From an uncultured Gemmatimonadales bacterium (GTDB taxonomy: Bacteria > Gemmatimonadota > Gemmatimonadetes > Gemmatimonadales > Gemmatimonadaceae), in contig CAWBZV010000002.1 in assembly GCA_963793305.1 (NCBI GenBank), positions 608,001 through 672,000 on the forward strand: 64,000 nt of DNA, written 5' to 3'. A program made the position numbers and the translations under genes. Shown here one piece after another: positions 16,607-30,517 of the stretch. Positions within the stretch are counted from its first letter, which is position 1. Each line of letters opens with the position of its first letter. Under the pieces are notes generated by a model, which searched no databases, was not told the origin of the DNA, and saw only the letters and a list, made by a program, of their open reading frames with translations.

Positions 16607-18328
16607 CTAACGCGCCAGTGACTGCTCCATCCAACGATGCATCTCGCTGTCGAGCACGTCGAGCGGCAATGCACCCTGACCGAGTGCCGCGTCATGAAAC
16701 GCCCGGAGATCGAAGCGCGCACCGAGCCGCGCGCGGGCTTCGGCGCGGAGCTTCAGGAACTCGAGCTGGCCGAGCTTGTACGCGAGCGCCTGGCCCGGCC
16801 ACGCGATATAGCGATCGACCTCGGTCTGGACATTCGGCTCATCCATCGCCGTATACGTATGGAAGTAATCGACCATCTGCTGCCGCGTCCAATGCTTGTA
16901 ATGGACGCCCGGGTCCACCACTAACCGAATCGCGCGCCACATCTCGTTCTCGAGCCGGCCATAATCGCTGTACGGGTCCTGATAGAACCCGACTTCTTTG
17001 CCGAGCCGCTCGGAATAAAAGGCCCAACCCTCGACGAATGCCGTGTAGCCGCCGTGCTGGCGGAACGTCGGCAAGTCAGGGAGCTCCTGAGCGAGCGACA
17101 ACTGCATGTGGTGTCCGGGAACGCCTTCGTGATAGGCGATCGCCTCGACATTCAGCAGCAGTCGCTGGTCCGGGTTCGACTCGTTCACGTTGATGCGCCC
17201 AGGGCGCGAGCCATCTGGCGTACCGGATGTATAGTCGGCCGGTACCGCGTTCGCGCCGCGGAATGGATCCATCGGGATCACGGCGAGCGTCGAGCGCGGG
17301 AGGCGGCCAAAGAGCTGCGGCAGACGCTCCGTCATCTGATGCGCGTACTTGGCGTAGAGATCGAGCACCTGCTGCCCGGACGTCCCGTAGAACCGGCGGT
17401 CGCGCTTGATATGATCGTTGAAGGTCGCGAGGTCGTTATAGCCCTGGCTCTTGGCGATGGTCAGCATCTGCGCCGCGACCTCGGCCACCTGCGCAACGCC
17501 GATCGCGTAGATCGAGTCGGGGCTCAAGTCCGTCGTTGTCATGCGCCGCGCTTCGAATCGATACCGCGCGGCGCCGTCCGGTAGCGCCCAGATGCCAGGA
17601 TCGTTGCGCCCCCGCGGCGCATACTCGGCGCGAACGAACTCGGCGAACTTCCGATACGCCGGCACGATCTCCTGGTCAACCGCCGCGAGGATCGCCACAC
17701 GGAGTCGCGCGCGATCAGCCTCGCCAAAGGCGGTCGGGAAGTGCGACAGGGGAACCGCGAACGGGCTCGCCGCGCCGGTCTTCGACGCGACATCCTGGGT
17801 CTCGACCACCACCTTGTCGAGCAGATAGCGCGGCGGCATGAGGCCATCGCGCATACCCTGTCGCATGTTCTCGGTCACCTGGTCGAACGCGTGTGGCATC
17901 GCATGCAGCCGGGCGATGTAATGATCGTAATCCGCGACCGTGTTGAATGGCGTCAGCGATACGAGGTCGACAAAGCCGAGGTGGATCCCATCGCGTTGGT
18001 CGACCGGCATCTCCCACGACTTGAACGCCATCGCGTCGAGACGCTCCCGCAGATCCCGGATCATCAGCCGACGACTCAGCGCATCGGATGCCGAGAGGCC
18101 AGCGGTGTCGATCGCCTCGAAGCGCGCCAGGAACGAGCGACGGGCCGCGGCATCAGCCTGGATCGCCGACAGCGAGCGGTCATCCAAGCGATCGTTGAAT
18201 CGATTGTCGCCGAGCGCCGTGGCGGCCTCCGGCGACGAGCGCATCTCGTAGTCCCACTCCTCGTCGAACAGGGGGCGCAACGGTTGCGCGACCTGAAGCA
18301 ACAGCGGCACGAGCAAGAGCATGGTCAC
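16607..18328 (-). CDS. DUF885 family protein (secreted, putative metallopeptidase)
   Basis: YHEGVPGHH, FVEGWAFYSE, RAIRLVVD and PGQALAYKLG motifs. Confidence 0.92.
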   Translation of the reverse strand: MTMLLLVPLLLQVAQPLRPLFDEEWDYEMRSSPEAATALGDNRFNDRLDDRSLSAIQADAAARRSFLARFEAIDTAGLSASDALSRRLMIRDLRERLDAMAFKSWEMPVDQRDGIHLGFVDLVSLTPFNTVADYDHYIARLHAMPHAFDQVTENMRQGMRDGLMPPRYLLDKVVVETQDVASKTGAASPFAVPLSHFPTAFGEADRARLRVAILAAVDQEIVPAYRKFAEFVRAEYAPRGRNDPGIWALPDGAARYRFEARRMTTTDLSPDSIYAIGVAQVAEVAAQMLTIAKSQGYNDLATFNDHIKRDRRFYGTSGQQVLDLYAKYAHQMTERLPQLFGRLPRSTLAVIPMDPFRGANAVPADYTSGTPDGSRPGRINVNESNPDQRLLLNVEAIAYHEGVPGHHMQLSLAQELPDLPTFRQHGGYTAFVEGWAFYSERLGKEVGFYQDPYSDYGRLENEMWRAIRLVVDPGVHYKHWTRQQMVDYFHTYTAMDEPNVQTEVDRYIAWPGQALAYKLGQLEFLKLRAEARARLGARFDLRAFHDAALGQGALPLDVLDSEMHRWMEQSLAR

Positions 18329-19222
18329 CTCGGTTGAGCCAGCGCGGAGCGAATGACCTTCAGCGCGGCATCGCGCTCGGCTCCCGACAGCGGCAGCCGC
18401 GGTGGACGTACCGTCTCCGAGCCGCGACCCACCTCGTGCTGCACGAGCTTGATGAGCTGCACGAACTTCATGACGGTGTCAAATCTCAACAAAGGCAGAA
18501 ACCACGAATAGAGCGCGAACGCTTCGGCTGCCCGACCGGTGCAGGCGAGATCGAAGAGTCGGACCGATTCAAGCGGCAGCGCGTTGACCAACCCGGCCAC
18601 CCATCCCCGCGCGCCGACGCCAACCGCTTCGAGGATCATATCGTCGAGTCCCGCGAGCAGCGACAATCGATCGCCGAGGACCGCGCGCAGGGCCGAGACC
18701 CGGCGCACGTCACCACTGGACTCTTTGACGGCATGCACGTTCGCGTGACGGTCAGCCAGTGCTTCCACGTCGGACGCCAGGAGATCGGTGCCGTACGCAA
18801 TCGGATTGTTGTAGAGCATGCACGACAATGGAGTCGCCGAGATCACCGCGTCGAAATGCGCGTGCGTCTCTCTCGCGTCCGGGCGATAGACATAGGGCGG
18901 CAACACCATTAGAGCCCGAGCACCCCGCGCGCTCCGCGGCGCGAGCCAAACGAACGCACTCCTCGGTAGCCAGGCCGCTGACGCCGGCAATGACGGGCGC
19001 CGAGGGACCGGCGGCGTCGGCGCAAATGGACAGCACGCGGATCTTCTCGTCGAATCCCAGCGTCGCCCCCTCACCGAGTGAGCCGAGCGCGACAATGCCT
19101 CGGCAACCATGGCCGAGCAGCCAGCGGACATGATCGGCGAGAAACGACTCGTCGATCGCCCCGTCGGCCTTGAACGGCGTCGTGATGGCCGGGAGAACGC
19201 CGGTCCAATCGTGTTTTTGCAT
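18325..19222 (-). CDS. DapA-family enzyme, probably pyrroline-4-hydroxy-2-carboxylate deaminase (extra base near 18913)
   Basis: GVLPAITTPF, GSLGE, LYNNP, KESSGD and FVQLIKL motifs; gene context. Confidence 0.85.
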
Positions 19223-20502
19223 TACAGGAAGGCTCGGACTGGAGTGGGAAAAATGGGTGGGCGTGGCGTGTCCGGCGGCCAACCGCGGAGACACTCCATG
19301 ATAGGGCCGCAGACACGGCCTTGGCATGGGCCCATCCCGATCCTCGTGTAAAGCTTCGCCTGGCGCTGCGTCCAGGCAGGATCGAGCGCGCCGTACGGGA
19401 CGCCCTCGCAACGGCAGACGATGGTCTCCGCTTCCGCGAGCGCGCGGACTTCGGGGCGGATCGCGAAGGCTGCGTCCAGACGTTGCGCGAACGCGTGGTG
19501 GCGCGAGCGAGCCTCACCGAGGACCGCGTCCGGCGCGACTCCGGCTGCCGCGCACCCGGCAATCGCGCCCTCGACGAGCGCGGCGTCTACGCCACTGATC
19601 CCGGTCGGCTCACCCGCGCAGAAGATGCCCGGCACACTGGTCGCCTGACGTTCATCGACATCCACCGCGCCGTCGCGAATCGCGCATCCCGCGAGCCGCG
19701 CCAACTCGGTCGATGGCACCAACCCGTAGCCGGTGCACAACACGTTGCAGGTCACGCGCTGCCCGTCGGACAGCATGACGTTGAGACCCGATGGAGATAC
19801 CGAGACCTGCGTGGCCCATGTGCCGGACCGAAATGGGGCGCCGACGAACGCCGAGCGATAGGCGATTGCGTCGAGTATCCGGCCGGGCGTTCGCCACAGT
19901 CCCGCGGCGAATCGAGCCATGCGCCGCGCCGAAGCCTGTTCGGCCACCAGGACAATGCGCGCCCCCGCCCGCGCCAAGGCCGCGGCCACCGTGAGCATGA
20001 GCGGCCCCGAACCCGCAAGGACGACTCGTCGTCCGGCGAAATCAGCCGCTCCGTTCTTGAGCAGCGCCTGTGCACCGCCGATGCCAATGACGCCCGGCAA
20101 CGTCCACCCGGGAAACGGTAGATACCGCTCACGGGCGCCCGTCGCCAGCACAACCGTCCGACCACCGAACAGCGAGGAGTCGACTACTTCGCCGCCCGGC
20201 ACGAACTCGGCGCCACATCGATCGAATCGCTCGAGCCAACGCACGGCAACGCGGGGCAACGTGCGGCGATCTCGGTGCCGCCAGATCTGCCCTCCCGGCC
20301 GCTGCGCCGAGTCGAGCACCACGACGCGCCGGCCCGCCTCGGCCGCATGCACCGCCGCGGCAATGCCCGCGGGACCGGCGCCGACGATCATCACGTCGGC
20401 CGGATGCCCGGCACCCACCCACGAGGGTATGCGCTCCATGCACGCACGCCGCGGCACGCATTGGAAACACGTTCCCATACCACAGAGTGCGCCATCGATC
20501 AT
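19222..20502 (-). CDS. FAD/NAD oxidoreductase (D-hydroxyproline dehydrogenase alpha-like) with an N-terminal minimal 2Fe-2S motif
   Basis: CGMGTCFQC..RAC; GAGPAG; LATGARE..PFPGWTLPGV; C-terminal CRCE...GMGPCQGRVC. Confidence 0.85.
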   Translation of the reverse strand: MIDGALCGMGTCFQCVPRRACMERIPSWVGAGHPADVMIVGAGPAGIAAAVHAAEAGRRVVVLDSAQRPGGQIWRHRDRRTLPRVAVRWLERFDRCGAEFVPGGEVVDSSLFGGRTVVLATGARERYLPFPGWTLPGVIGIGGAQALLKNGAADFAGRRVVLAGSGPLMLTVAAALARAGARIVLVAEQASARRMARFAAGLWRTPGRILDAIAYRSAFVGAPFRSGTWATQVSVSPSGLNVMLSDGQRVTCNVLCTGYGLVPSTELARLAGCAIRDGAVDVDERQATSVPGIFCAGEPTGISGVDAALVEGAIAGCAAAGVAPDAVLGEARSRHHAFAQRLDAAFAIRPEVRALAEAETIVCRCEGVPYGALDPAWTQRQAKLYTRIGMGPCQGRVCGPIMECLRGWPPDTPRPPIFPTPVRAFL

Positions 20503-21494
20503 ATGCGAGCCGGCGAGTACGGCGCGGGATCGATCGCCGTCGGCCGGCCCAGAATCAGGTCGGTCAAGAGACGACCCGTGCCGAGCGCCATGGTAATGCC
20601 GAGCCCTTCATGTCCGGCCGCGATCCACAGACCGGGCGTAGCCGGCCAAGCGCCAATGTAAGGCCGATGATCCGGCGTCGCCGGACGAAAGCCCGTCCAT
20701 ACGCGAAGGGCGGTGACGTCAGAGAGCGCCGGCATGAATTCCACCGCGCGCCGCACCATGCGACCGAGGATCTCGCGATTGATCGACGCATCCCATCCCA
20801 CCAACTCTCGCGATGATCCGATCAAGACCTGACCCGTCGAGCGCGGCTGCACGTTGAACGCCACGCACGCATCGCCCAACGTCTTCGCGCTTTGAACGTA
20901 TCCGAGCTCGGCCACTTGATGCCGGCACAACCCCGGCACACGATCGGTGATGAGCAAGTGGCCTTTGCGCGGGATGATCGGCAGGCCTGGTGTCAGCGTC
21001 GGGGCCCACGCACCGGCGGCATTCACGATCACATCGGCCTTCAGCCCATCAAGACGATCAACACGCGTGTGTTCTTTTACACGTAACCCGGCCAACAACC
21101 AACGCGTGAGCGCCGGTTGATACACGACGCCGTCAGTAGGCACGAGCACCGCGCCGGCGAGCCCCGGACGCAATGCGGGCTCTGCCTCGCGCAATGCTTT
21201 TTCATCGAGTAACTCGCCGCCGGTCATCGATAACTGGTCCGGCGTCTCGGCCACCCAGAGCGTGCCGCAGCGGTCCAAGCCGACATCAGGCGGAGAAAGC
21301 GACCATAACAACTTCTGTGAGTAGGCGGACAACGGATCATCATCAAAGACGACAACGTGTCCCATGCCCGCGGCGGTCGTCCCCGCGCCGGCGAACTCGG
21401 CCTCGAGCACGGTAACCGACAGGCCTTCCTGCGCGAGATAGTACGCGCACGCGGCGCCAATGATGCCCGCGCCAACGACGATGACGTCCGTCAC
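20499..21494 (-). CDS. D-amino-acid oxidase family protein (D-hydroxyproline dehydrogenase beta-like)
   Basis: GAGIIG, WTGFRPATPD and GHEGLGIT motifs. Confidence 0.88.
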   Translation of the reverse strand: MTDVIVVGAGIIGAACAYYLAQEGLSVTVLEAEFAGAGTTAAGMGHVVVFDDDPLSAYSQKLLWSLSPPDVGLDRCGTLWVAETPDQLSMTGGELLDEKALREAEPALRPGLAGAVLVPTDGVVYQPALTRWLLAGLRVKEHTRVDRLDGLKADVIVNAAGAWAPTLTPGLPIIPRKGHLLITDRVPGLCRHQVAELGYVQSAKTLGDACVAFNVQPRSTGQVLIGSSRELVGWDASINREILGRMVRRAVEFMPALSDVTALRVWTGFRPATPDHRPYIGAWPATPGLWIAAGHEGLGITMALGTGRLLTDLILGRPTAIDPAPYSPARI

Positions 21495-22420
21495 ACCTCA
21501 GGGAATCCGGCGCGAAACGGATCAGCAGTGTCGAAGCGCAACGTCGTCTCGCCCGTGACGAACGCATGCCCACGGATGAACGGGATGAGCTCCCCATCGC
21601 GTTGCTCGAGCCAACTCGTGAACCGCCCACCCGTGATGCTCTCCGGCTCGAAGACCTGACCAGGCGCGAGCAAACCCCGGGCATGAAGCGTCGCCAGCTT
21701 CGCCGAGGTACCCGTACCGCAGGGCGAGCGATCATACGCTCCGCCAGGACACATGACGAAGTTGCGCCCGTCCGGCGCCGAGAGCTCCACGTGGTCGATC
21801 TCGGCCCCATTCGCGCCCGTGATGCCCTGATCGCGCAGCGCATCCATGATGGCGATAGTGAGGCGCGATAGCTCCACCTGCCTGGCCATCGTGAGCGGCT
21901 GATCGGCCAGGTGCGTGATGAAGAACCAGTTCCCACCATACGCGATGTCGCCGACAATACGACCCAAGCCGGGCACGTGCACGGCGACATCGCATGCGTG
22001 ACACCGCGCCGCCACGTTGCGGATGGTGACGGTGCCATCGGCACCCAACTCGGCCGCCACGGTTCCCACCGGCGTGTCGAGCGTCACGGTACCAGCAGAA
22101 AGCCGGCCGAGATACTCCAGGGTGCGCACGACGCCGATCGTACCGTGACCGCACATGCCGAGATACCCGACGTTGTTGAAAAAAATGACGCCGGCAATCG
22201 AGTTGGGTTCGGTCGGGGGCGTCAACATCGCACCGACCAGCGCATCATGCCCCCGCGGCTCACAAATGACCGCCCGTCGCAGATGATCCGCATCCCGCCG
22301 CATCGATTCACGCCGCGCCGCCATCGTATCGCCGGACGGCTGTGGCCAGCCGTCGAGCACGACACGAGTCGGCTCGCCTTCAGTGTGGGAATCGATGACC
22401 CGAATGGACGCAGGGAACAT
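21491..22420 (-). CDS. 4-hydroxyproline 2-epimerase (proline racemase family)
   Basis: DSHTEGEPTR, EPRGH, MCGHG and DRSPCGTGT; both catalytic Cys present. Confidence 0.92.
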   Translation of the reverse strand: MFPASIRVIDSHTEGEPTRVVLDGWPQPSGDTMAARRESMRRDADHLRRAVICEPRGHDALVGAMLTPPTEPNSIAGVIFFNNVGYLGMCGHGTIGVVRTLEYLGRLSAGTVTLDTPVGTVAAELGADGTVTIRNVAARCHACDVAVHVPGLGRIVGDIAYGGNWFFITHLADQPLTMARQVELSRLTIAIMDALRDQGITGANGAEIDHVELSAPDGRNFVMCPGGAYDRSPCGTGTSAKLATLHARGLLAPGQVFEPESITGGRFTSWLEQRDGELIPFIRGHAFVTGETTLRFDTADPFRAGFPEV

Positions 22421-22495: not shown

Positions 22496-23134
22496 ATGCG
22501 ATTCGCCTTGCTCCTCTCCCTCGTCGCCACGCCCGCTTTCGTCCTGTCGCTCGATTCGACGAAGGGGCTCACGCCAATCCGCGCCACAGTCAGCGCCGTC
22601 ACCTATCACAACCGCCGCGCGGTAAAGCTGACCGACACCGGCGACGGCGGCATGGCGCTCGTCAACGACCTGGACTTCCACTCCGGTACGATCGTCGTGC
22701 ACGTCGCCGCGGTGCCGGTCCCGACAATCGACACCTCGTCCCGCGGGTTCGTAGGTCTTGCGTTCCGTAGCTCGGCCGACGGGAATCGATACGAGAACCT
22801 GTACCTGCGCATGACCAACGGCCGCGCCGACGACCAGCTCAGGCGCAACCACTCGGCGCAGTACGAATCGATTCCCGACGCTCCGTGGCACACGCTCCGC
22901 GAGAAGAGCCCCGGGAAATACGAGTCATACGTCGACCTCCGGGCCGGCGAGTGGACGACCATTCGTATCGTCGTTCACGGCAACCACGCGGAGCTCTTCG
23001 TGAACGACGCCGATCAGCCCTGCCTCGTCGTCAGCGATCTCATGCTCGGCGACACGCACGGACGGATCGCCCTATGGATCGGCCCGGGCACGATCGGCTA
23101 CTTCTCGCGCCTGACGGTCGAAGCGGCGCCCTAA
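22496..23134 (+). CDS. Secreted beta-sandwich protein (DUF1080-like)
   Basis: Signal peptide; RGFVGLAFR, RRNHSAQY and WTTIRIVV...LFVN motifs. Confidence 0.7.
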   Translation: MRFALLLSLVATPAFVLSLDSTKGLTPIRATVSAVTYHNRRAVKLTDTGDGGMALVNDLDFHSGTIVVHVAAVPVPTIDTSSRGFVGLAFRSSADGNRYENLYLRMTNGRADDQLRRNHSAQYESIPDAPWHTLREKSPGKYESYVDLRAGEWTTIRIVVHGNHAELFVNDADQPCLVVSDLMLGDTHGRIALWIGPGTIGYFSRLTVEAAP

Positions 23135-23904
23135 CGCATCGCGCTCACGACGCGCGAGGTCAGGAATGTCACGGTGTCGAAGCCGTGGGCGCGTAGGCGA
23201 GCTTCGAGTACATCGGGTTCGATACGCGTCAGCCACGGCTCACCGGCGGCCGCGGCACGCTCGGCGATCTCATCGGACTCGTCGGGCGCCTTGGGAGCCG
23301 TGAACGTAAAGACGATTTCGCTCAGGGGTGGCAGCGCGGCCACGAATGCAAACACCGCGTCGACAGCGGATTCCGTGAGATAGACCATGACGCCGAGCCA
23401 GGACACGAATGTCGCGGCGCGTGGATCGAAGCCGGAGGCCGCGAGGCCGTCCATGAGCGACGTCGTCTCGAAGTCGATCGCGACGTGCTCCACGTTCGGC
23501 GGCACAACAATGCCGGCGCCCGCCAAACGCGCTCGCTTGGCGTCGCGGCTCGCGGGATGATCGACCTCGAAGACGCGAAGGGGCGCGGCCCACGCGGGTT
23601 GCCGATACGCGAACGTGTCATATCCCGCGCCGAGGACGATGCATTGGCGGACCCCTCGGGCGACGGCCTCGGCCAGCCGATCCTCGGCGTGCCGGCTTCG
23701 CGCGACGACGTGGAGGAGAAGCCGCCGCACCGGCGGCGCGTCGAAGCGCTCCGGATTCGCCCGAATGCGATCGATGACCTCCGGCTCGAGGAGGCGCAAG
23801 ACGACCGGGTCCTCGAGGATGTGCGGAGGGCTGTCGAGCAACTGGTGCGCGGCCCGGAGCGTCGCGACGGCAAGCGCGGTCGCGCTCGCGGCGCGATCCG
23901 TCAC
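23131..23904 (-). CDS. Class I SAM methyltransferase (LCM/YktD-like)
   Basis: VLGAGYDTFAYR, FEVDHP and WLGVMVYL motifs; GTGA overlap with the upstream gene. Confidence 0.9.
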   Translation of the reverse strand: MTDRAASATALAVATLRAAHQLLDSPPHILEDPVVLRLLEPEVIDRIRANPERFDAPPVRRLLLHVVARSRHAEDRLAEAVARGVRQCIVLGAGYDTFAYRQPAWAAPLRVFEVDHPASRDAKRARLAGAGIVVPPNVEHVAIDFETTSLMDGLAASGFDPRAATFVSWLGVMVYLTESAVDAVFAFVAALPPLSEIVFTFTAPKAPDESDEIAERAAAAGEPWLTRIEPDVLEARLRAHGFDTVTFLTSRVVSAMR

Positions 23905-24152
23905 GGCAGCGGCAGCGCCTGCCGGTCGACGAGAGTCTTCGTCAGAAGCTGCTGCGCGTCCGTCATGCGGCTGAGCTCCGCGGTGACGTCGTCGAGCGCA
24001 ACTTCGACGCGCGCGAGCCGGTTCTCGAAACTGGCGACCGTCGCCGCCGCCACATTCTTGCGTCCGTTGAGCCACAGCCGAACGAGGGTTATCAACGTCG
24101 CGCCGCCGATCGCCATCGACAAGACAGCGACGATCGCATCATTCTGATCCAC
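23901..24152 (-). CDS. TM + coiled-coil array protein, copy 6
   Basis: FENRLARVEVALDDVTAELSRMTDAQQLL; GGAGGT SD before the GTG. Confidence 0.85.
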   Translation of the reverse strand: MDQNDAIVAVLSMAIGGATLITLVRLWLNGRKNVAAATVASFENRLARVEVALDDVTAELSRMTDAQQLLTKTLVDRQALPLP

Positions 24153-24402
24153 GCGACACCTCCGCCGGCAACCCACGTTGAGTGAGCGCCGCCGTCAAGA
24201 ACCGGTGCGACTCGGTCATCCGGCCGATCTCGGCCGACATATCATCGATCGCGACTTCCAGGCGCGCGAGGCGCATCTCGACGTCACCCGACGGCTTGGC
24301 TTTGACAAGGCGTGACTTGTACCAGTAATGCGCGACGCCGACGACCATTCCCGACAGTGACATGAAGACAAAGACCGCGGCAACGGCGTCAGGCCCCCCC
24401 AT
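24139..24402 (-). CDS. TM + coiled-coil array protein, copy 5
   Basis: VEMRLARLEVAIDDMSAEIGRMTESHRFL. Confidence 0.85.
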   Translation of the reverse strand: MGGPDAVAAVFVFMSLSGMVVGVAHYWYKSRLVKAKPSGDVEMRLARLEVAIDDMSAEIGRMTESHRFLTAALTQRGLPAEVSRGSE

Positions 24403-24655
24403 GCGCGGCCTCCGACGATCTCTCCGCCAGAAGTTTCGTGACGAACTGCTGCCCTTCGGTCACCCGCGTCAACTCGGCGGCCATGTCGTCAATGGCAACC
24501 TCGAGCCGCGCGAGCCGCATCTCGACATCGGCCGGTGCCCTGATCCGCTCGTTCTTCAATCGCACCAACTTCGTGACGTAGTGACCGGCGCCGATCACGA
24601 CCAACGCGATCGACGCAAAGAAGACCATCCCCGCGAATGCCTCAGCGGGATTCAC
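24389..24655 (-). CDS. TM + coiled-coil array protein, copy 4
   Basis: VEMRLARLEVAIDDMAAELTRVTEGQQFV. Confidence 0.85.
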   Translation of the reverse strand: MNPAEAFAGMVFFASIALVVIGAGHYVTKLVRLKNERIRAPADVEMRLARLEVAIDDMAAELTRVTEGQQFVTKLLAERSSEAAHGGA

Positions 24656-24893
24656 GAATCATCTCCGGGGACCGGTCGGCGAGCAGTTTGTTCGTGAACT
24701 GCTGACCTTCGGTCACACGCGACAGCTCTGAGGTGAGATCGTCGATCGCGACCTCCAGCCGTGCGAGGCGCTTCTCAATACCGTCGAGCGCCTCCGGCTT
24801 GGACTGCTGCGTCCCATACTTGACGCCGACCCATATCCAGATCGTGACGGCGACGATCGAGAACACGACGATGAAGACGACTTCCGGCGGCAT
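24642..24893 (-). CDS. TM + coiled-coil array protein, copy 3
   Basis: IEKRLARLEVAIDDLTSELSRVTEGQQFT. Confidence 0.85.
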   Translation of the reverse strand: MPPEVVFIVVFSIVAVTIWIWVGVKYGTQQSKPEALDGIEKRLARLEVAIDDLTSELSRVTEGQQFTNKLLADRSPEMIRESR

Positions 24894-25168
24894 CAGCGGG
24901 ATTCCCGCGACGGCAGCGCCCCGACGGCGCCCCGCTCAGTCAAGACGTTCGTCAAGAACTGCTGCCCTTCGGTGACCCGCCCGATCGCGCCGGTGAGATC
25001 ATCGATCGCGACCTCGACCCGTGCGAGGCGCTTCTCATAGGCCTCCAGCGCGCTTGCCGAAGCGCCGCGTTTCGATACCTGCTTGACCATCTCGATAATA
25101 AACCCCATGCCACAGGCGATCGCGACAATGGCGACGACCATATCGAAGGGGTTATTGACGAAATGCAT
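24893..25168 (-). CDS. TM + coiled-coil array protein, copy 2
   Basis: YEKRLARVEVAIDDLTGAIGRVTEGQQFL; GGAGGAG SD. Confidence 0.85.
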   Translation of the reverse strand: MHFVNNPFDMVVAIVAIACGMGFIIEMVKQVSKRGASASALEAYEKRLARVEVAIDDLTGAIGRVTEGQQFLTNVLTERGAVGALPSRESR

Positions 25169-25180
25169 AGTCGCTCCTCC

Positions 25181-25444
25181 CTACGGTCCGAGGCGCCTCG
25201 AGGTTTCGGGGTCCGCCAGGACCTTCGTTAAGAACTGCTGGCCCTCGCCAATCTTGGTGATTTCGCCAGCAAGATCATCCAGTGCGACTTCAACGCGTGC
25301 CAGGCGCCGTTCCAGCGACTCCAGCGCCTCCGGTCCCGCCGAGGAACTGCGCTTGTAGCCGATCCACTTCGAGCCGATGACCAGAACGGCGATCATGCCG
25401 AACATCGAGACGGGTACGGCGACTTCCGGTCCGATATACATCAT
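25181..25444 (-). CDS. TM + coiled-coil array protein, copy 1
   Basis: LERRLARVEVALDDLAGEITKIGEGQQFL; ATGA overlap with the uvrA stop. Confidence 0.85.
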   Translation of the reverse strand: MMYIGPEVAVPVSMFGMIAVLVIGSKWIGYKRSSSAGPEALESLERRLARVEVALDDLAGEITKIGEGQQFLTKVLADPETSRRLGP

Positions 25445-28288
25445 ATCGTATCTAACGTCATCGCGAACCGCGCGGTGTCAACTGGCTTGCTCGGCCTCGG
25501 CAGGACCGTGCGAAGCCAGCGTCCGGTATGAGACGACTCGACCGCGGCCACGTCCTCGGGCCGGCCCATGGCGACGACCCGTCCACCGTGCATACCGGCC
25601 TCGGGCCCGAGGTCGATGACCCAGTCCGCCAGCTTGATCACATCCAGGTTGTGCTCGATCAGGACCAGCGTATGACCCTGATCGACCAACCGGTCCAGCA
25701 CGTTGGCCAGCCGGCGAATGTCTTCGAGGTGCAGGCCAGTCGTCGGCTCATCGAGAATGTAGAGCTTCCGCCCACCCGATCGCGCGGATGCCGCGAGCTC
25801 ACGGGCGATCTTGATCCGCTGTGCCTCGCCACCAGACAGCGTGGTGGCGGGTTGTCCCAAGTGGAGATAGCCGAGTCCGACTCGCTGCAACTGCCACAAC
25901 GTCGACGTCAGACGATCTTGACCGTGAAAGAATCGCACGGCTTCCTCGACGGTGAGGTCGAGCACCTGCGCGATGTTCTTGTTCTTGACCGTCACTTCCA
26001 GCACATCCGACCGGAATCGCCGCCCACCACACACGTCGCATGGAACGAACACGTCGGCCATGAACACCATCTCGACCTCGATATACCCCGCGCCCTCGCA
26101 GTTCTCGCATCGCCCGCCCGCGACGTTGAACGAGAATGTGCCCGGCGTATACCGCCGCTCCCGCGCCAATGCGGTGTCGGCAAAGAGACGCCGAATCTCA
26201 TCGTAGGCCTTGATGTACGTCACGGGATTGGATCGCGGAGATCTCCCGATCGGAGCCTGGTCGATCAGCACGACGTCATCGAACGACTCTGCGCCCGTTA
26301 GAGACGTATAGCTGCCGACCGGCTCACCCAAGTGGCGTTTCGCCGAGTTGTCTCCTCGCAGCCGCGTCTCCAATGCCCTGTACAACACATCGTGCACGAG
26401 CGTGCTTTTCCCCGAGCCCGACACGCCGGTGACGACCGTCAGCGCACCAATAGGGATGCGAATGTCGACGCCCTGCAAATTGTGCTGGCGTGCGCCAGTC
26501 AGGGTCAGCCACGGAGGACCGACGGGCCGTCTCTTCGGAATCGGGATCGTCCGGAGGCCGGTGAGATATTGGCCGGTCAGCGGACTCTCGCTCGCCCGGG
26601 AAATCGGGCCGGCGAAGACGATACGGCCGCCGTTATCCCCGCTGCCTGGCCCCAGCTCGATCATGTAGTCCGCATGCCGCACCGCTTCGAGATCGTGCTC
26701 GACGACCAGGACGGTATTTCCGGCATCGCGAAGCCGCATCAATAATCTCAATAACCGATCGATATCCCTCGGGTGCAGCCCGATGGATGGCTCGTCGAGC
26801 ACATACAGCGTGTCGACCAACCGTGAGCCGAGCGAGTTGGCGAGCGCGATACGTTGTGCTTCGCCGCCCGAGAGCGTTCGCGCGGCTCGATTCAATGAGA
26901 GGTAGCCGAGTCCGACGTCGACGAGAAACTGGAGCCGGTCGCGCGCCTCTCTGAGCACCGTCGTCGCGATCGTTTGCTCGAACGGCGTCAGTGGCAGGCC
27001 GTCGAGCCACGGCAACAGGACGTCGACCGGCAACTCGGCCACTTCGGCGATCGTGCGGTCGGCGATGCGCACGTGCAGCGCGGCCGGCTGCAGCTTCGCG
27101 CCGTGGCACGACGGGCAGACCCTCGCCGATTGATACTGCCGCAGAAAGACCCTGATGTATTGCTTGTAGCGCTTCGTCTCGAGGCGTTTCAAGAACGGGA
27201 AGATGCCGACGTACGGCTTCGTCTGGCCGCGGATCGGTGCGTTGAGCAGCACCTGGCGCTGCTCGGCCGTCAGATCGCGCCACGGAACGTTCAGCGGGAT
27301 CTTTTCGCGCCGCGCAAAGTCGGCGAGCGTCCGGCGCGTGCCGTCGTAGCGTGGCTTCTCCCACGGATCGATCGCGCCATCGCTCAGCGTCTTGCTCGGG
27401 TCAGGGACGATCAGCGACTCATCGTACTCCAGCACCGCGCCAAACCCGTTACAGGTCGGACAGGCGCCTCTCGGATTATTGAATGAGAAGAGCTGCGGCG
27501 TCGGCTCGGGGGCCACGGTGCCATCGTTTGGACACTCGAAGCGTTCGGTATACCGGTGCTCGACGTCGCCGACCAGGATCACGCAGTCGCCGTCACCTTC
27601 GGCGAACGCCGTTCCCACCGCATCGGCTAGGCGGGATGCGATGTCGGGGCCCATGACGAGGCGGTCGACGACCACCAGCGGGTTCACCGCCGTTGTCAGG
27701 TCGATCGCCCAGGTCTTGCAGCTCTTGCAGTTCGCGCATAGCGCCGCCCACGCTGACGCGAACGAACCCCCGCGCTTGCAGGTTCTCGACGACGACGGCG
27801 TGAGATACTTGATCGGAAACCCGGAGAGGGAAGGCGACAGCGAACCGGGTTCCCGCCGCGAAGGCCAGAACGGCGTCAGTGACCGATTGAACCGTGGAGG
27901 GCCGCAACTCGCGGCCGCACACGGAACAGAACGTGTGCCCGATGCGAGCCCACAGCAGCCGGAGATAGTCGTAGATCTCCGTGGCCGTGCCAACCGTGGA
28001 GCGCGATGTCTTGGTCGGGTTCTTTTGCTCGATCGCGACGGCTGGAGACAGGCCGTCGACGATGTCGACGTCCGGCTTCTCCATCCGCTCCAGAAACTGC
28101 CGCGCGTAGGCCGACAGCGACTCGACGTAGCGCCGCTGCCCCTCGGCGTAGATGGTATCGAACGCGAGCGACGACTTCCCCGACCCCGACGGACCCGTGA
28201 TCACGGTCAGGGCTCGGCGGGGAATGTCGAGGTCGAGATTTTTCAGGTTGTGTTGCCGCGCACCGCGAACGATCAGCCGGTCCTTCAC
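25441..28288 (-). CDS. uvrA: Excinuclease ABC subunit A (extra base near 27709)
   Basis: GARQHNLK, GSGKSSLAFDTIYAEGQRRYVES, two LSGGEAQRI signatures and Zn fingers. Confidence 0.93.
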
Positions 28289-28686: not shown

Positions 28687-30517
28687 ATGGCAGGGGAGGC
28701 AGGAACAGGCATTCACGAGGAGGATGCGCTCGGCAAGGCCTACGATGGGCGGCTGATGCGGCGCTTGCTGGCGTACGCCAAGCCGTATTGGTACCTGATC
28801 GTCCCAGCTATCGTCTTCCTGTGCGGCGAAGGCGCGCTCCAACTGGTCGGCCCCGTGCTGACCAAGCGCGTCATAGACGTTGGAGTGCCGCACCATGATG
28901 GGCATCTGATCCGCATCTCCGTCGGGCTGTATGTCCTGTCGCTCGTCTTGCAGTTCGGCTGCTCGTACGGCGAGACCCTCCTCACGAGCCTTCTGGGCCA
29001 GCGCGTCATGCGGGACCTCCGGATGCGCATGTTCGCCCATGTGGAGAACTTGCCGGTCGCATTTTTTGACCGAAACCCCGTCGGCCGTCTCGTCACCCGG
29101 GTGACATTGGACGTTCGAGTCGCTGAACGACCTGTTCACCGCCGGCGTCGTGTCCGGACTCGGCGACCTGTTCACGCTCGTGTTCATCGCGATCTTCATG
29201 GTCCGCGACGACTGGCGGCTGGCGCTCGCCGCCTTCGGGGTCATCCCGCTGGTGTGGCTGACGTCCGAGATCTTCCGGGTCAAGGTCCGAGCGTCCTATC
29301 GCGACATCCGGACGCGAATCGCGCGCATCAACGCGTTTCTCAACGAACGCCTGACCGGCATGCGCATCGTACAGCTGTTCGGTCGCGAGAAATGGGAAGC
29401 CGATCGCTTCGACGACCTGAATCGCGGGTACCTCGCCTCGAACTTGAGGTCGATCACGATCTACGCGTTGTATTTCCCCGCGATTGAAATTCTGACATCG
29501 GTCGCCCTCGCCAGCTTGATCGTTGCCGGCGCCGGCCGAATCCATGCGTCCACGTTGACCGTAGGGACTCTCGCGGCGTTTCTGCAGCTCGTGCGGCGAT
29601 TCTTCCAGCCGCTGCAGGATCTATCGGACAAATACAATACGCTGCAACAAGCCATGGCCTCATCGGAGCGCATCTTCAAACTGCTCGACGAGCCCGAAGG
29701 CCCCGCTCAGGGCGTTGTGACCGGTATACCACGTGGAGGCGTGACGGTTGAGTTCGAGGACGTATGGTTCGCCTACGGAAACGCCGAACCGCCACAATGG
29801 GTGTTGCGGGGCGTAAGCTTCCGCGCGGAGCCAGGACAAACGATTGCGCTCGTCGGACACACAGGGGCGGGGAAGACCACGGTGGTGAGTCTCCTGATGC
29901 GATTCTATGATCCGCAACGAGGCCGGATTCTGGTCGACGGCGTTGACATCCGCGAGATGTCGCTCGCCGACCTCCGCGTCCGTATCGGGTACGTCCAGCA
30001 GGACATCTTTCTGTTTGCCGGCGACGTCATGACGAACGTGCGGCTCTCGAGCGCGTTGTCCGACGCGGACGTCCAGCGCGCCGCGGCGCGGGTCGGCGCC
30101 GACCGTGTCGTCGCCCGGCTCCCCGGTGGATGGTCACAGGAGCTCGGCGAGCGCGGCGCGTCGATCAGTGTCGGCGAGCGACAACTCCTGTCGTTCGCCC
30201 GGGCGATAGCGGCCGACCCCGCGCTCCTGCTGCTCGATGAGGCGACGAGCGCGGTCGACAGCGAGATAGAAGCGGAGATTCAGCAAGCGCTGGCAGTCCT
30301 CATGCAAGGAAGGACGACGATTGCGGTCGCCCACCGGTTGAGCACGATCATCGGCGCGGACGAGATTCTGGTGATGCACCACGGGGAGATTCGGGAGCGC
30401 GGGACCCACCGCGAGTTGCTGGAGCAGGGTGGATTGTATGAGCGTCTGTATCGACTCCAGGTCGGCGACGACGGACGGGGAAGTGTTGCGCGCGACGCCC
30501 TTGCCGCATCTAACTGA
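28687..30517 (+). CDS. ABC exporter, fused TMD-NBD (extra base near 29114)
   Basis: FFDRNPVGRLVTR, GHTGAGKTT, SVGERQL and LLLDEATS motifs. Confidence 0.92.

Follow-up and report, generated by a model that had tools for sequence, protein, structure and literature searches.

What do six small membrane proteins, encoded one after another behind a uvrA gene, do for a Gemmatimonadaceae bacterium? We addressed this question in a 64,000-nucleotide stretch of one contig, referred to here as the window. A first-pass annotation of the window had described six closely packed paralogues, each with a membrane helix and a coiled coil, and had read them as a membrane system of combinatorial hetero-oligomers that might serve in envelope stress, DNA damage or phage defence.

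Organization and sequence of the array

All six open reading frames were confirmed on the minus strand, between a second uvrA paralogue (uvrA2) and a SAM methyltransferase gene:

25441..28288, minus strand, uvrA2 (second uvrA paralogue), upstream neighbour; frame changes near 27705-27720
25181..25444, minus strand, copy 1, 87 aa, membrane helix and coiled coil; ATG overlaps the uvrA2 stop
24893..25168, minus strand, copy 2, 91 aa
24642..24893, minus strand, copy 3, 83 aa
24389..24655, minus strand, copy 4, 88 aa; near-invariant residues E67, F71 and L76
24139..24402, minus strand, copy 5, 87 aa; degenerate motif (ESHRF)
23901..24152, minus strand, copy 6, probably 83 aa from GTG 24152; ORF open from 24176; degenerate motif (DAQQL)
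23131..23904, minus strand, LCM-family SAM methyltransferase (PF04072), about 257 aa; downstream neighbour, kept in close relatives only

Gaps from uvrA2 through the six copies to the methyltransferase gene are -4, +12, -1, -14, -14, -14 and -4 nt, bearing out the overlaps that had been described at both ends. The sizes of 83-91 aa also stand, except that copy 6 is probably shorter than was read: GTG 24152 is its most likely start, because a GGAGG lies just upstream and the gene caller chose it here and in two relatives. GC3 of the six ORFs is 0.76-0.83. A promoter and terminator scan gave no excess over shuffles. In four of six metatranscriptome runs, short contigs of relatives together cover the array, five of them bridging neighbouring copies; strand and a single transcript are not readable from them and DNA carry-over is possible, which leaves them as a weak hint of transcription.

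Each copy has a single 19-residue hydrophobic segment, with a mean Kyte-Doolittle value of 1.9-2.7 across the six, preceded by no lysine or arginine and followed by two to five; by the positive-inside rule, the proteins are predicted to be N-out, C-in. An AlphaFold2 monomer model of copy 4 contains helices 3-35 and 42-85 (pLDDT 91.5, pTM 0.48), and sequence and model both give an N-terminal membrane helix followed by a putatively cytoplasmic helix, as for PspB. The unbroken heptad register that had been noted was confirmed on copy 4, whose core comprises L48, L51, I55, M58, L62, V65, Q69, V72 and L76, with the polar glutamine at an a position (histidine in copy 5). The motif R-h-x-x-h-E, as RLAR[LV]E, occurs in all six copies and its g-a-b-c-d-e register is kept. 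Between paralogues, the core is 61% identical and the region N-terminal to it 26%; the conserved core was rightly called, but the E-G-Q-Q-F said to end it has degenerated in copies 5 and 6. No Pfam or NCBIfam family reached its cut-off with any of the six copies, and for copy 3 the ESM Atlas returned unnamed Gemmatimonadota clusters only. The annotators knew of no name for the array, and it indeed represents an unnamed conserved family. By a six-copy HMM, its copies are the sole family members in the 5.7-Mb genome (E<1e-32; next match E 0.6).

Conservation and neighbours within the genus

Family matches occur in 6/6 genomes of the genus, three to eight in each, with arrays of 6, 6, 5, 4 and 2 copies behind uvrA2 and, in G001, a fragment at the end of a contig. 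Copies cluster by array position across these genomes: copy 1 has a first-position orthologue in G001, G003, G004 and G005, copy 2 has orthologues in G001 and G004, and copy 3 has orthologues as well. With few columns, FastTree places 14 genus rows in one group (support 96). These sequences point to a genus-level expansion behind uvrA2, after which the copies were retained.

Comparison with two relatives, pooling six orthologue pairs, gave dN/dS values of 0.03 for the core, 0.19-0.25 for the N-terminal and membrane part and 0.46-0.47 for the tail. Every array copy is under purifying selection. The low pooled ratios argue that the array is not neutral and that its membrane helices are conserved position by position; those of the membrane part reject positive selection there. 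The membrane helices that had been called diversified do differ between paralogues, but between orthologues selection is purifying rather than diversifying.

The neighbouring genes proved to be a poor guide to function. uvrA2 is 51% identical to the other uvrA of the genome and, compared with an intact 945-aa relative, is frameshifted near 27705-27720 in the assembly, likely by assembly error since further genes of the window also appear split. The methyltransferase gene is next after the array in four of the six genus genomes, and outside the genus uvrA2 has no family copy behind it in 4/4 assessable genomes. Both links, to uvrA and to the methyltransferase, had been offered as a functional clue but are genus-level only.

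A class-wide family that tracks PspA

The array is neither peculiar to this genome nor neutrally diverging, which would have counted against the first-pass annotation. The six-copy profile matched 342 proteins at 90% clustering (two named Gemmatimonadaceae), 1928 at 50% clustering, and 22 of the 24 genomes of the window's bacterial family, a tally that includes the unpublished G012, a genome used for no other result. With a 55-row profile, we found the gene family in 131 of 151 sampled Gemmatimonadota genomes, at 1-18 matches each, and PspA in 133 of the same genomes; no Pfam family matched more than 6 of 55 family members. The 136 in-class genomes comprise 130 with both, four with neither (two of them small, at 1.8 and 2.0 Mb), G108 with PspA only and G028 with the family only. 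The 15 genomes of other classes have no family match and a PspA match in two, one over the cut-off. With an even broader profile, G113 and G115 remained without a match, and G108, G129 and G137 yielded weak, motif-less matches only. The gene family is class-wide in Gemmatimonadota and tracks PspA, in a sample of related genomes in which co-occurrences are not independent.

Of the 133 PspA-positive genomes, 60 were selected by family spread and contig extent and not by the array, and 10 kb around pspA was inspected in each. Genes were called with a purpose-made codon model and labelled by BLAST to one reference locus of family f3, L070, itself an early match to the gene family, in which the order is uvrA, five copies, cesT (PF22550), pspA (PF04012) and an AI-2E transporter gene. 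Family genes lie co-directionally and directly upstream of cesT/pspA in 32/60 of the chosen loci, or 33/61 with L070. This arrangement was found in 24/24 loci of f2, 5/5 of f6, 1/1 of f5 and 2/2 of f8, plus L070 in f3, so that copies adjoin cesT-pspA in all 33 loci of these five bacterial families combined; copies do not adjoin pspA in 20/20 loci of f1, the window's family, 7/7 of f7 and 1/1 of f4. The pspA loci carry 1-13 called copies, at least nine loci being single-copy operons, and the distance from the last copy to the pspA start is 0-1129 nt. uvrA1 stands directly before the first copy in 16 of the 32 pspA-adjacent loci, and it also precedes cesT-pspA where a locus has no family genes.

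In this genome pspA lies on the same contig as the array but about 400 kb away, at C2:228704, with uvrA1, an EamA-like gene, cesT, pspA and AI2E in that order; cesT, labelled by its match to the PF22550 gene of L070, is directly upstream of pspA (C2:228284-229495). In other Gemmatimonadaceae genera, copies sit directly upstream of the gene for a sigma-54 response regulator and behind that of its kinase (10/10 sampled f1 genomes outside the genus; Pfam labels checked on L048). This slot has no family copies in the present genome and in G003, G026, G078 and G120 (4/4 tested). Families f7 and f4 have one copy between bshC and murJ (5/5 genomes), and in Gemmatimonadaceae many more copies lie scattered as single genes, some of which carry long N-terminal extensions. 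Copies from Gemmatimonadaceae fall into a derived clade with a changed motif (support 99; FastTree, 99 columns). Because the position upstream of cesT-pspA is common to five families, it is the most parsimonious candidate for the ancestral state, on an unrooted comparison. In the window's family the copies appear to have moved: beside the sigma-54 regulator in most genera, and behind uvrA2 in this genus only.

Relationship to PspB, PspC and known Psp systems

Only E67, F71 and L76 (copy 4 numbering) are near-invariant across 148 members. E67 and F71 occupy outer heptad positions, f and c, and L76, conserved at 84% in one subfamily and 97% in the other, an a position. The three residues are kept in both subfamilies and form the family-wide element, E-x-x-x-F-x-x-x-x-L, three heptads after RLAR[LV]E. 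The latter motif, although present in all six copies as had been described, is specific to the Gemmatimonadaceae subfamily; the pspA-adjacent one shows no conservation at its position. Sister families instead have R-L-D-F-A-E three heptads on, where PspB and PspC also have R-h-x-x-h-E. The C-terminal motifs are in register, ERLDFAERLL and EGQQFxTKLL in the family against ERIQALESIL in PspB and TRLREMERYV in the PspC tail, with the invariant phenylalanine having no counterpart in PspB or PspC. L76 aligns with V105 of E. coli PspC, a match that rests on a hand-set motif anchor. PspB and PspC are reported to interact, the PspC C-terminus recruiting PspA under stress, and a mutation of Yersinia PspC V125 (V105D in E. 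coli) to abolish PspA recruitment or binding (PMC6003685). A complex predicted for this genome's PspA (residues 1-228) and the tail of copy 4 (residues 28-84), both as alignments, scored 0.02, a value that tips the balance neither way.

Profile comparison joins the six window copies to 116 pspA-adjacent members at 94.9% (hhalign, E 4e-8); register-preserving shuffles did as well in 0-2 of 300 trials for copies 1-5 and in 8 of 300 for copy 6. When the pspA-adjacent profile was run against an 880-kb Sphingomonas replicon, its top two matches were genes after pspC in the psp operon (E 8e-8 and 5e-5), and 0/300 shuffles scored as high; these genes score 30 and 23 bits with the pspA-adjacent set, against 12-28 for the window copies. 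Two of the three extra genes after pspC at this locus (L133) are significant homologues. The family's range beyond Gemmatimonadota rests on this one Sphingomonas record and Atlas leads.

To canonical PspB and PspC, the putative homology is borderline and weak. Window copies, copy 3 among them, match PspB (PF06667/TIGR02976) weakly, at E 0.04-0.08, below the cut-offs. TIGR02976 is the most frequent of the 91 NCBIfam matches, with 34 of 116 members and a best E of 7e-6, all far below its cut-off of 51.7 bits; Pfam PspB matched 2/116 pspA-adjacent members, and pspB ranks second of five matches in the E. coli chromosome. Single-sequence hhalign to PspB and PspC gave 21%, 16% and 6%. In sequence tests, shuffles scored as high as the real match in 39/300 (E. 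coli PspB) and 7/300 (PspC). The profile comparison with PspB that had been recommended gave 48-85% with 61 PspB rows, and 84.8% for a combined profile, but register-preserving shuffles scored as high in 7/60, 10/60 and 4/100 (4-17%). Among named Atlas clusters PspB comes first, with a score of 0.80, which counts as no more than a lead. A PDB sequence search with the family profile returned generic coiled coils only, in 57 weak matches; we found no PspB or PspC relative of solved structure. Taken together, these comparisons suggest that current profiles miss a wider superfamily, one that would take in PspB, the tail of PspC and a large number of small membrane proteins without a name.

The remaining circuitry of this genome differs from that of pspFABC. 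PF06667 (PspB) was absent from the five genomes searched, this one included; PF04024 (PspC) is absent from this genome (G000, 92% complete) and from three of four others, the single match being unlinked. None of the genome's 18 sigma-54 activator matches has tryptophan at the position of PspF W56, and a sigma-54 consensus scan that recovered the E. coli and Sphingomonas psp promoters found the consensus in 36/173 loci at no consistent position. On these grounds, the canonical PspF circuit appears to be absent. The kinase-linked sigma-54 regulator, considered as a stand-in for PspF, was rejected, having arginine at the W56 position in 7/7 aligned sequences.

Like PspB (PF06667, TIGR02976) and the PspC tail, the family combines an N-terminal membrane helix with a short cytoplasmic helix and a C-terminal motif in register, and in sister families it shares the pspA neighbourhood of pspFABC. 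It differs from them in scoring below cut-offs, in its invariant phenylalanine and in its 1-13 copies; here, moreover, PspC domain and PspF are missing, the partner pspA is of the CesT-PspA type and the array stands some 400 kb from it. The array is not PspB by family definition but probably functions as PspB/PspC do, in a so far undescribed variant of Psp in Gemmatimonadota. In the part consulted, Ravi et al. 2024 (PMC11237479) describes both PspB duplicates and CesT/Tir-PspA dyads. Its psp operon with PspB duplicates, like Sphingomonas L133, has tandem small membrane and coil genes as in the array; the Sphingomonas extras, however, accompany canonical pspF, pspB, pspC and a sigma-54 site, whereas the Gemmatimonadota genes stand alone, upstream of cesT-pspA or detached. 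A cesT-pspA dyad likewise occurs across this class and in this genome, but the partners described for the dyads in those sections are band-7, polyamine-metabolism and TPM proteins, and no tandem single-pass coil array appears among the groups described there. LiaI-LiaH of Bacillus subtilis, in which a small membrane protein is reported to recruit a PspA homologue under stress (PMC7619361), is a functional analogue; LiaI is not multiplied and has no sequence match to the family in Pfam or NCBIfam scans. Gemmatimonadota are not mentioned in the consulted text and supplement of Ravi et al. 2024, whose web app may list the phylum, or in the consulted text and supplements of Popp et al. 2022 (PMC9239133), whose figures or external data may do so, and literature searches on PspA or phage shock protein in Gemmatimonadetes found no on-topic work.

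Proposed function and alternatives

We propose, with a probability of roughly 0.6, that the array encodes duplicated single-pass inner-membrane anchors or sensors of PspA that resemble PspB and the PspC tail, because the family lies directly beside pspA in most related bacteria. This gene context in sister families much strengthens the earlier comparison with PspB and guess of envelope stress. At rest, the coils would pair with one another, as happens with the PspB and PspC tails. In a genome without PspC and PspF, both roles in the PspB/PspC switch would fall to the paralogues. Membrane stress would be sensed by the differing helices and would loosen or rearrange the coils, and the exposed C-terminal E-x-x-x-F-x-x-x-x-L face would then bind PspA. 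Bound PspA, a bacterial ESCRT-III encoded with its CesT-like chaperone gene at the distant locus, would be recruited to damaged membrane, and this recruitment, rather than sigma-54 transcription, would be the output. The main reservation is that in the window's family the copies stand away from pspA and belong to a derived clade. With copies off the pspA loci (0/20 adjoining) and a changed motif, function in Gemmatimonadaceae may have drifted. More tentatively, and with the odds against so full a picture, we envisage an ESCRT-III membrane repair free of PspC and PspF, with a repertoire of single-pass receptors (1-18 genes per genome) that can expand and that recruits PspA. The PspA-binding tail would be the same throughout and the membrane helices would vary, each receptor being matched to its own membrane lesion or partner; the receptors would pair combinatorially to silence one another, would have expanded independently in several lineages, and could leave the pspA operon as here.

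That detachment could also mean that the Gemmatimonadaceae copies left the Psp system altogether and became small modulators of other membrane proteins, such as the histidine kinase of the sigma-54 pair, acting through coil or membrane helix. Their place in the kinase-regulator slot in all ten sampled genomes, the scattered and sometimes extended singletons, the derived clade and motif, and the copy between bshC and murJ in f7 and f4 are what such modulators might leave behind. We consider this unlikely, as the slot is empty in this genome and four others, the C-terminal motif keeps its E, F and L in both subfamilies, two f1 genomes that lack PspA also lack the family, and the regulator has arginine where PspF has tryptophan. 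Still harder to sustain is the original proposal of a self-contained combinatorial hetero-oligomer, a sensor or scaffold of RLAR[LV]E trimers with an output unrelated to PspA. Regular heptads, R-h-x-x-h-E in every copy, translational coupling and position-specific conservation agree with it; single-copy pspA operons, however, indicate that more than one paralogue need not be present, the pspA-adjacent subfamily does not conserve the RLARLE position, and R-h-x-x-h-E is reported to set the trimer state only inside a trigger sequence (PMC3653964). Oligomerisation fits the PspA-anchor reading too and therefore names no output by itself.

The array is probably not a new DNA-repair or defence system. 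A partnership with UvrA in the DNA-damage response, for example to hold repair at the membrane or to signal damage, draws on the start/stop overlap with uvrA2 in the genus and on uvrA1 preceding the copies at half of the pspA-adjacent loci, but uvrA1 keeps that place where the family is missing, and uvrA2 lacks a downstream copy in the four assessable genomes outside the genus. Among seven SOS-box patterns tried, GTTC-N7-GTTC is present upstream of lexA and recA and absent within 220 nt of uvrA1, uvrA2 and cesT, and we found no candidate SOS box upstream of uvrA2; the DNA-damage role once suggested is very improbable. Phage defence, with the proteins as membrane effectors of an anti-phage locus, seems more far-fetched again: small membrane proteins in variable copy number would suit it, but the family is near-universal in the class rather than patchy, has housekeeping neighbours and is under purifying selection, and among 148 members one had any PADLOC match (E 4e-4); there was no phage match. 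Psp systems do respond to phage secretins, and such a response would fall under the PspA-anchor reading.

If the array does anchor PspA, it is a variant of the known Psp system and not a new kind of system. It would provide a candidate for what targets PspA to damaged membrane outside Proteobacteria, Bacillus and mycobacteria, throughout an entire class of bacteria abundant in soil and water. The family also offers a natural series of operons with 1 to 13 copies, and a handle on PspA binding at single residues, in the leucine aligned with PspC V105 and the family-specific phenylalanine.

Family members in other genomic settings

In two other families (f4 and f7), a copy from the protein family of the array, whose small members combine a membrane helix with a coiled coil, lies between bshC and murJ in all five genomes examined (L155, L156, L157, L158 and L159). 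The bshC gene belongs to bacillithiol synthesis, and murJ encodes the lipid II flippase. Within the Gemmatimonadaceae, some members reach 150–220 aa (L046, L047, L051, L055, L057, L061, L063 and L068), with a long N-terminal extension, Ala/Gln-rich or coiled, ahead of the membrane helix; a band-7 gene adjoins one of them (L055). Genome G007 carries two identical family copies at loci far apart (L036 and L037), with flanking ORFs that we judged by eye to be transposase-like, a combination that suggests a recent mobile duplication. G108 is the sole in-class genome with PspA that lacks a typical family member; its small membrane-plus-coil ORFs (L169 and L173) are without the C-terminal motif E-x-x-x-F-x-x-x-x-L.

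Throughout the class, AI-2E transporter and DUF1611 genes downstream of pspA lengthen its operon (L070, L073, L092 and many others). At locus L071, an AT-rich inverted repeat occupies a divergent promoter upstream of cesT-pspA, between two genes, one probably EamA-like and the other probably a CGNR zinc-finger-like ORF.

Genomic context of the array

Downstream of the array lies an ordinary catabolic cluster:

18325–22228, array's strand: proline racemase/hydroxyproline-epimerase and D-amino-acid oxidase, together with related genes

The second uvrA paralogue, uvrA2, shifts frame near 27705–27720 when compared with an intact relative, and a dihydrodipicolinate-synthase-like gene (18325–19411) and an ABC transporter (28687–30517) each appear broken across two frames. 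These three breaks suggest indel errors in the assembly.

Elsewhere in the window's genome, a GTTC-N7-GTTC direct repeat stands upstream of both lexA (L174) and recA (L177) and is a candidate SOS box for this lineage.

The array follows the other paralogue, uvrA1, in sister families (L070, L100–L111) and uvrA2 (25441) in the window's genus, two placements behind a uvrA paralogue. One possible reason for its position behind both paralogues is an exchange between uvrA1 and uvrA2.
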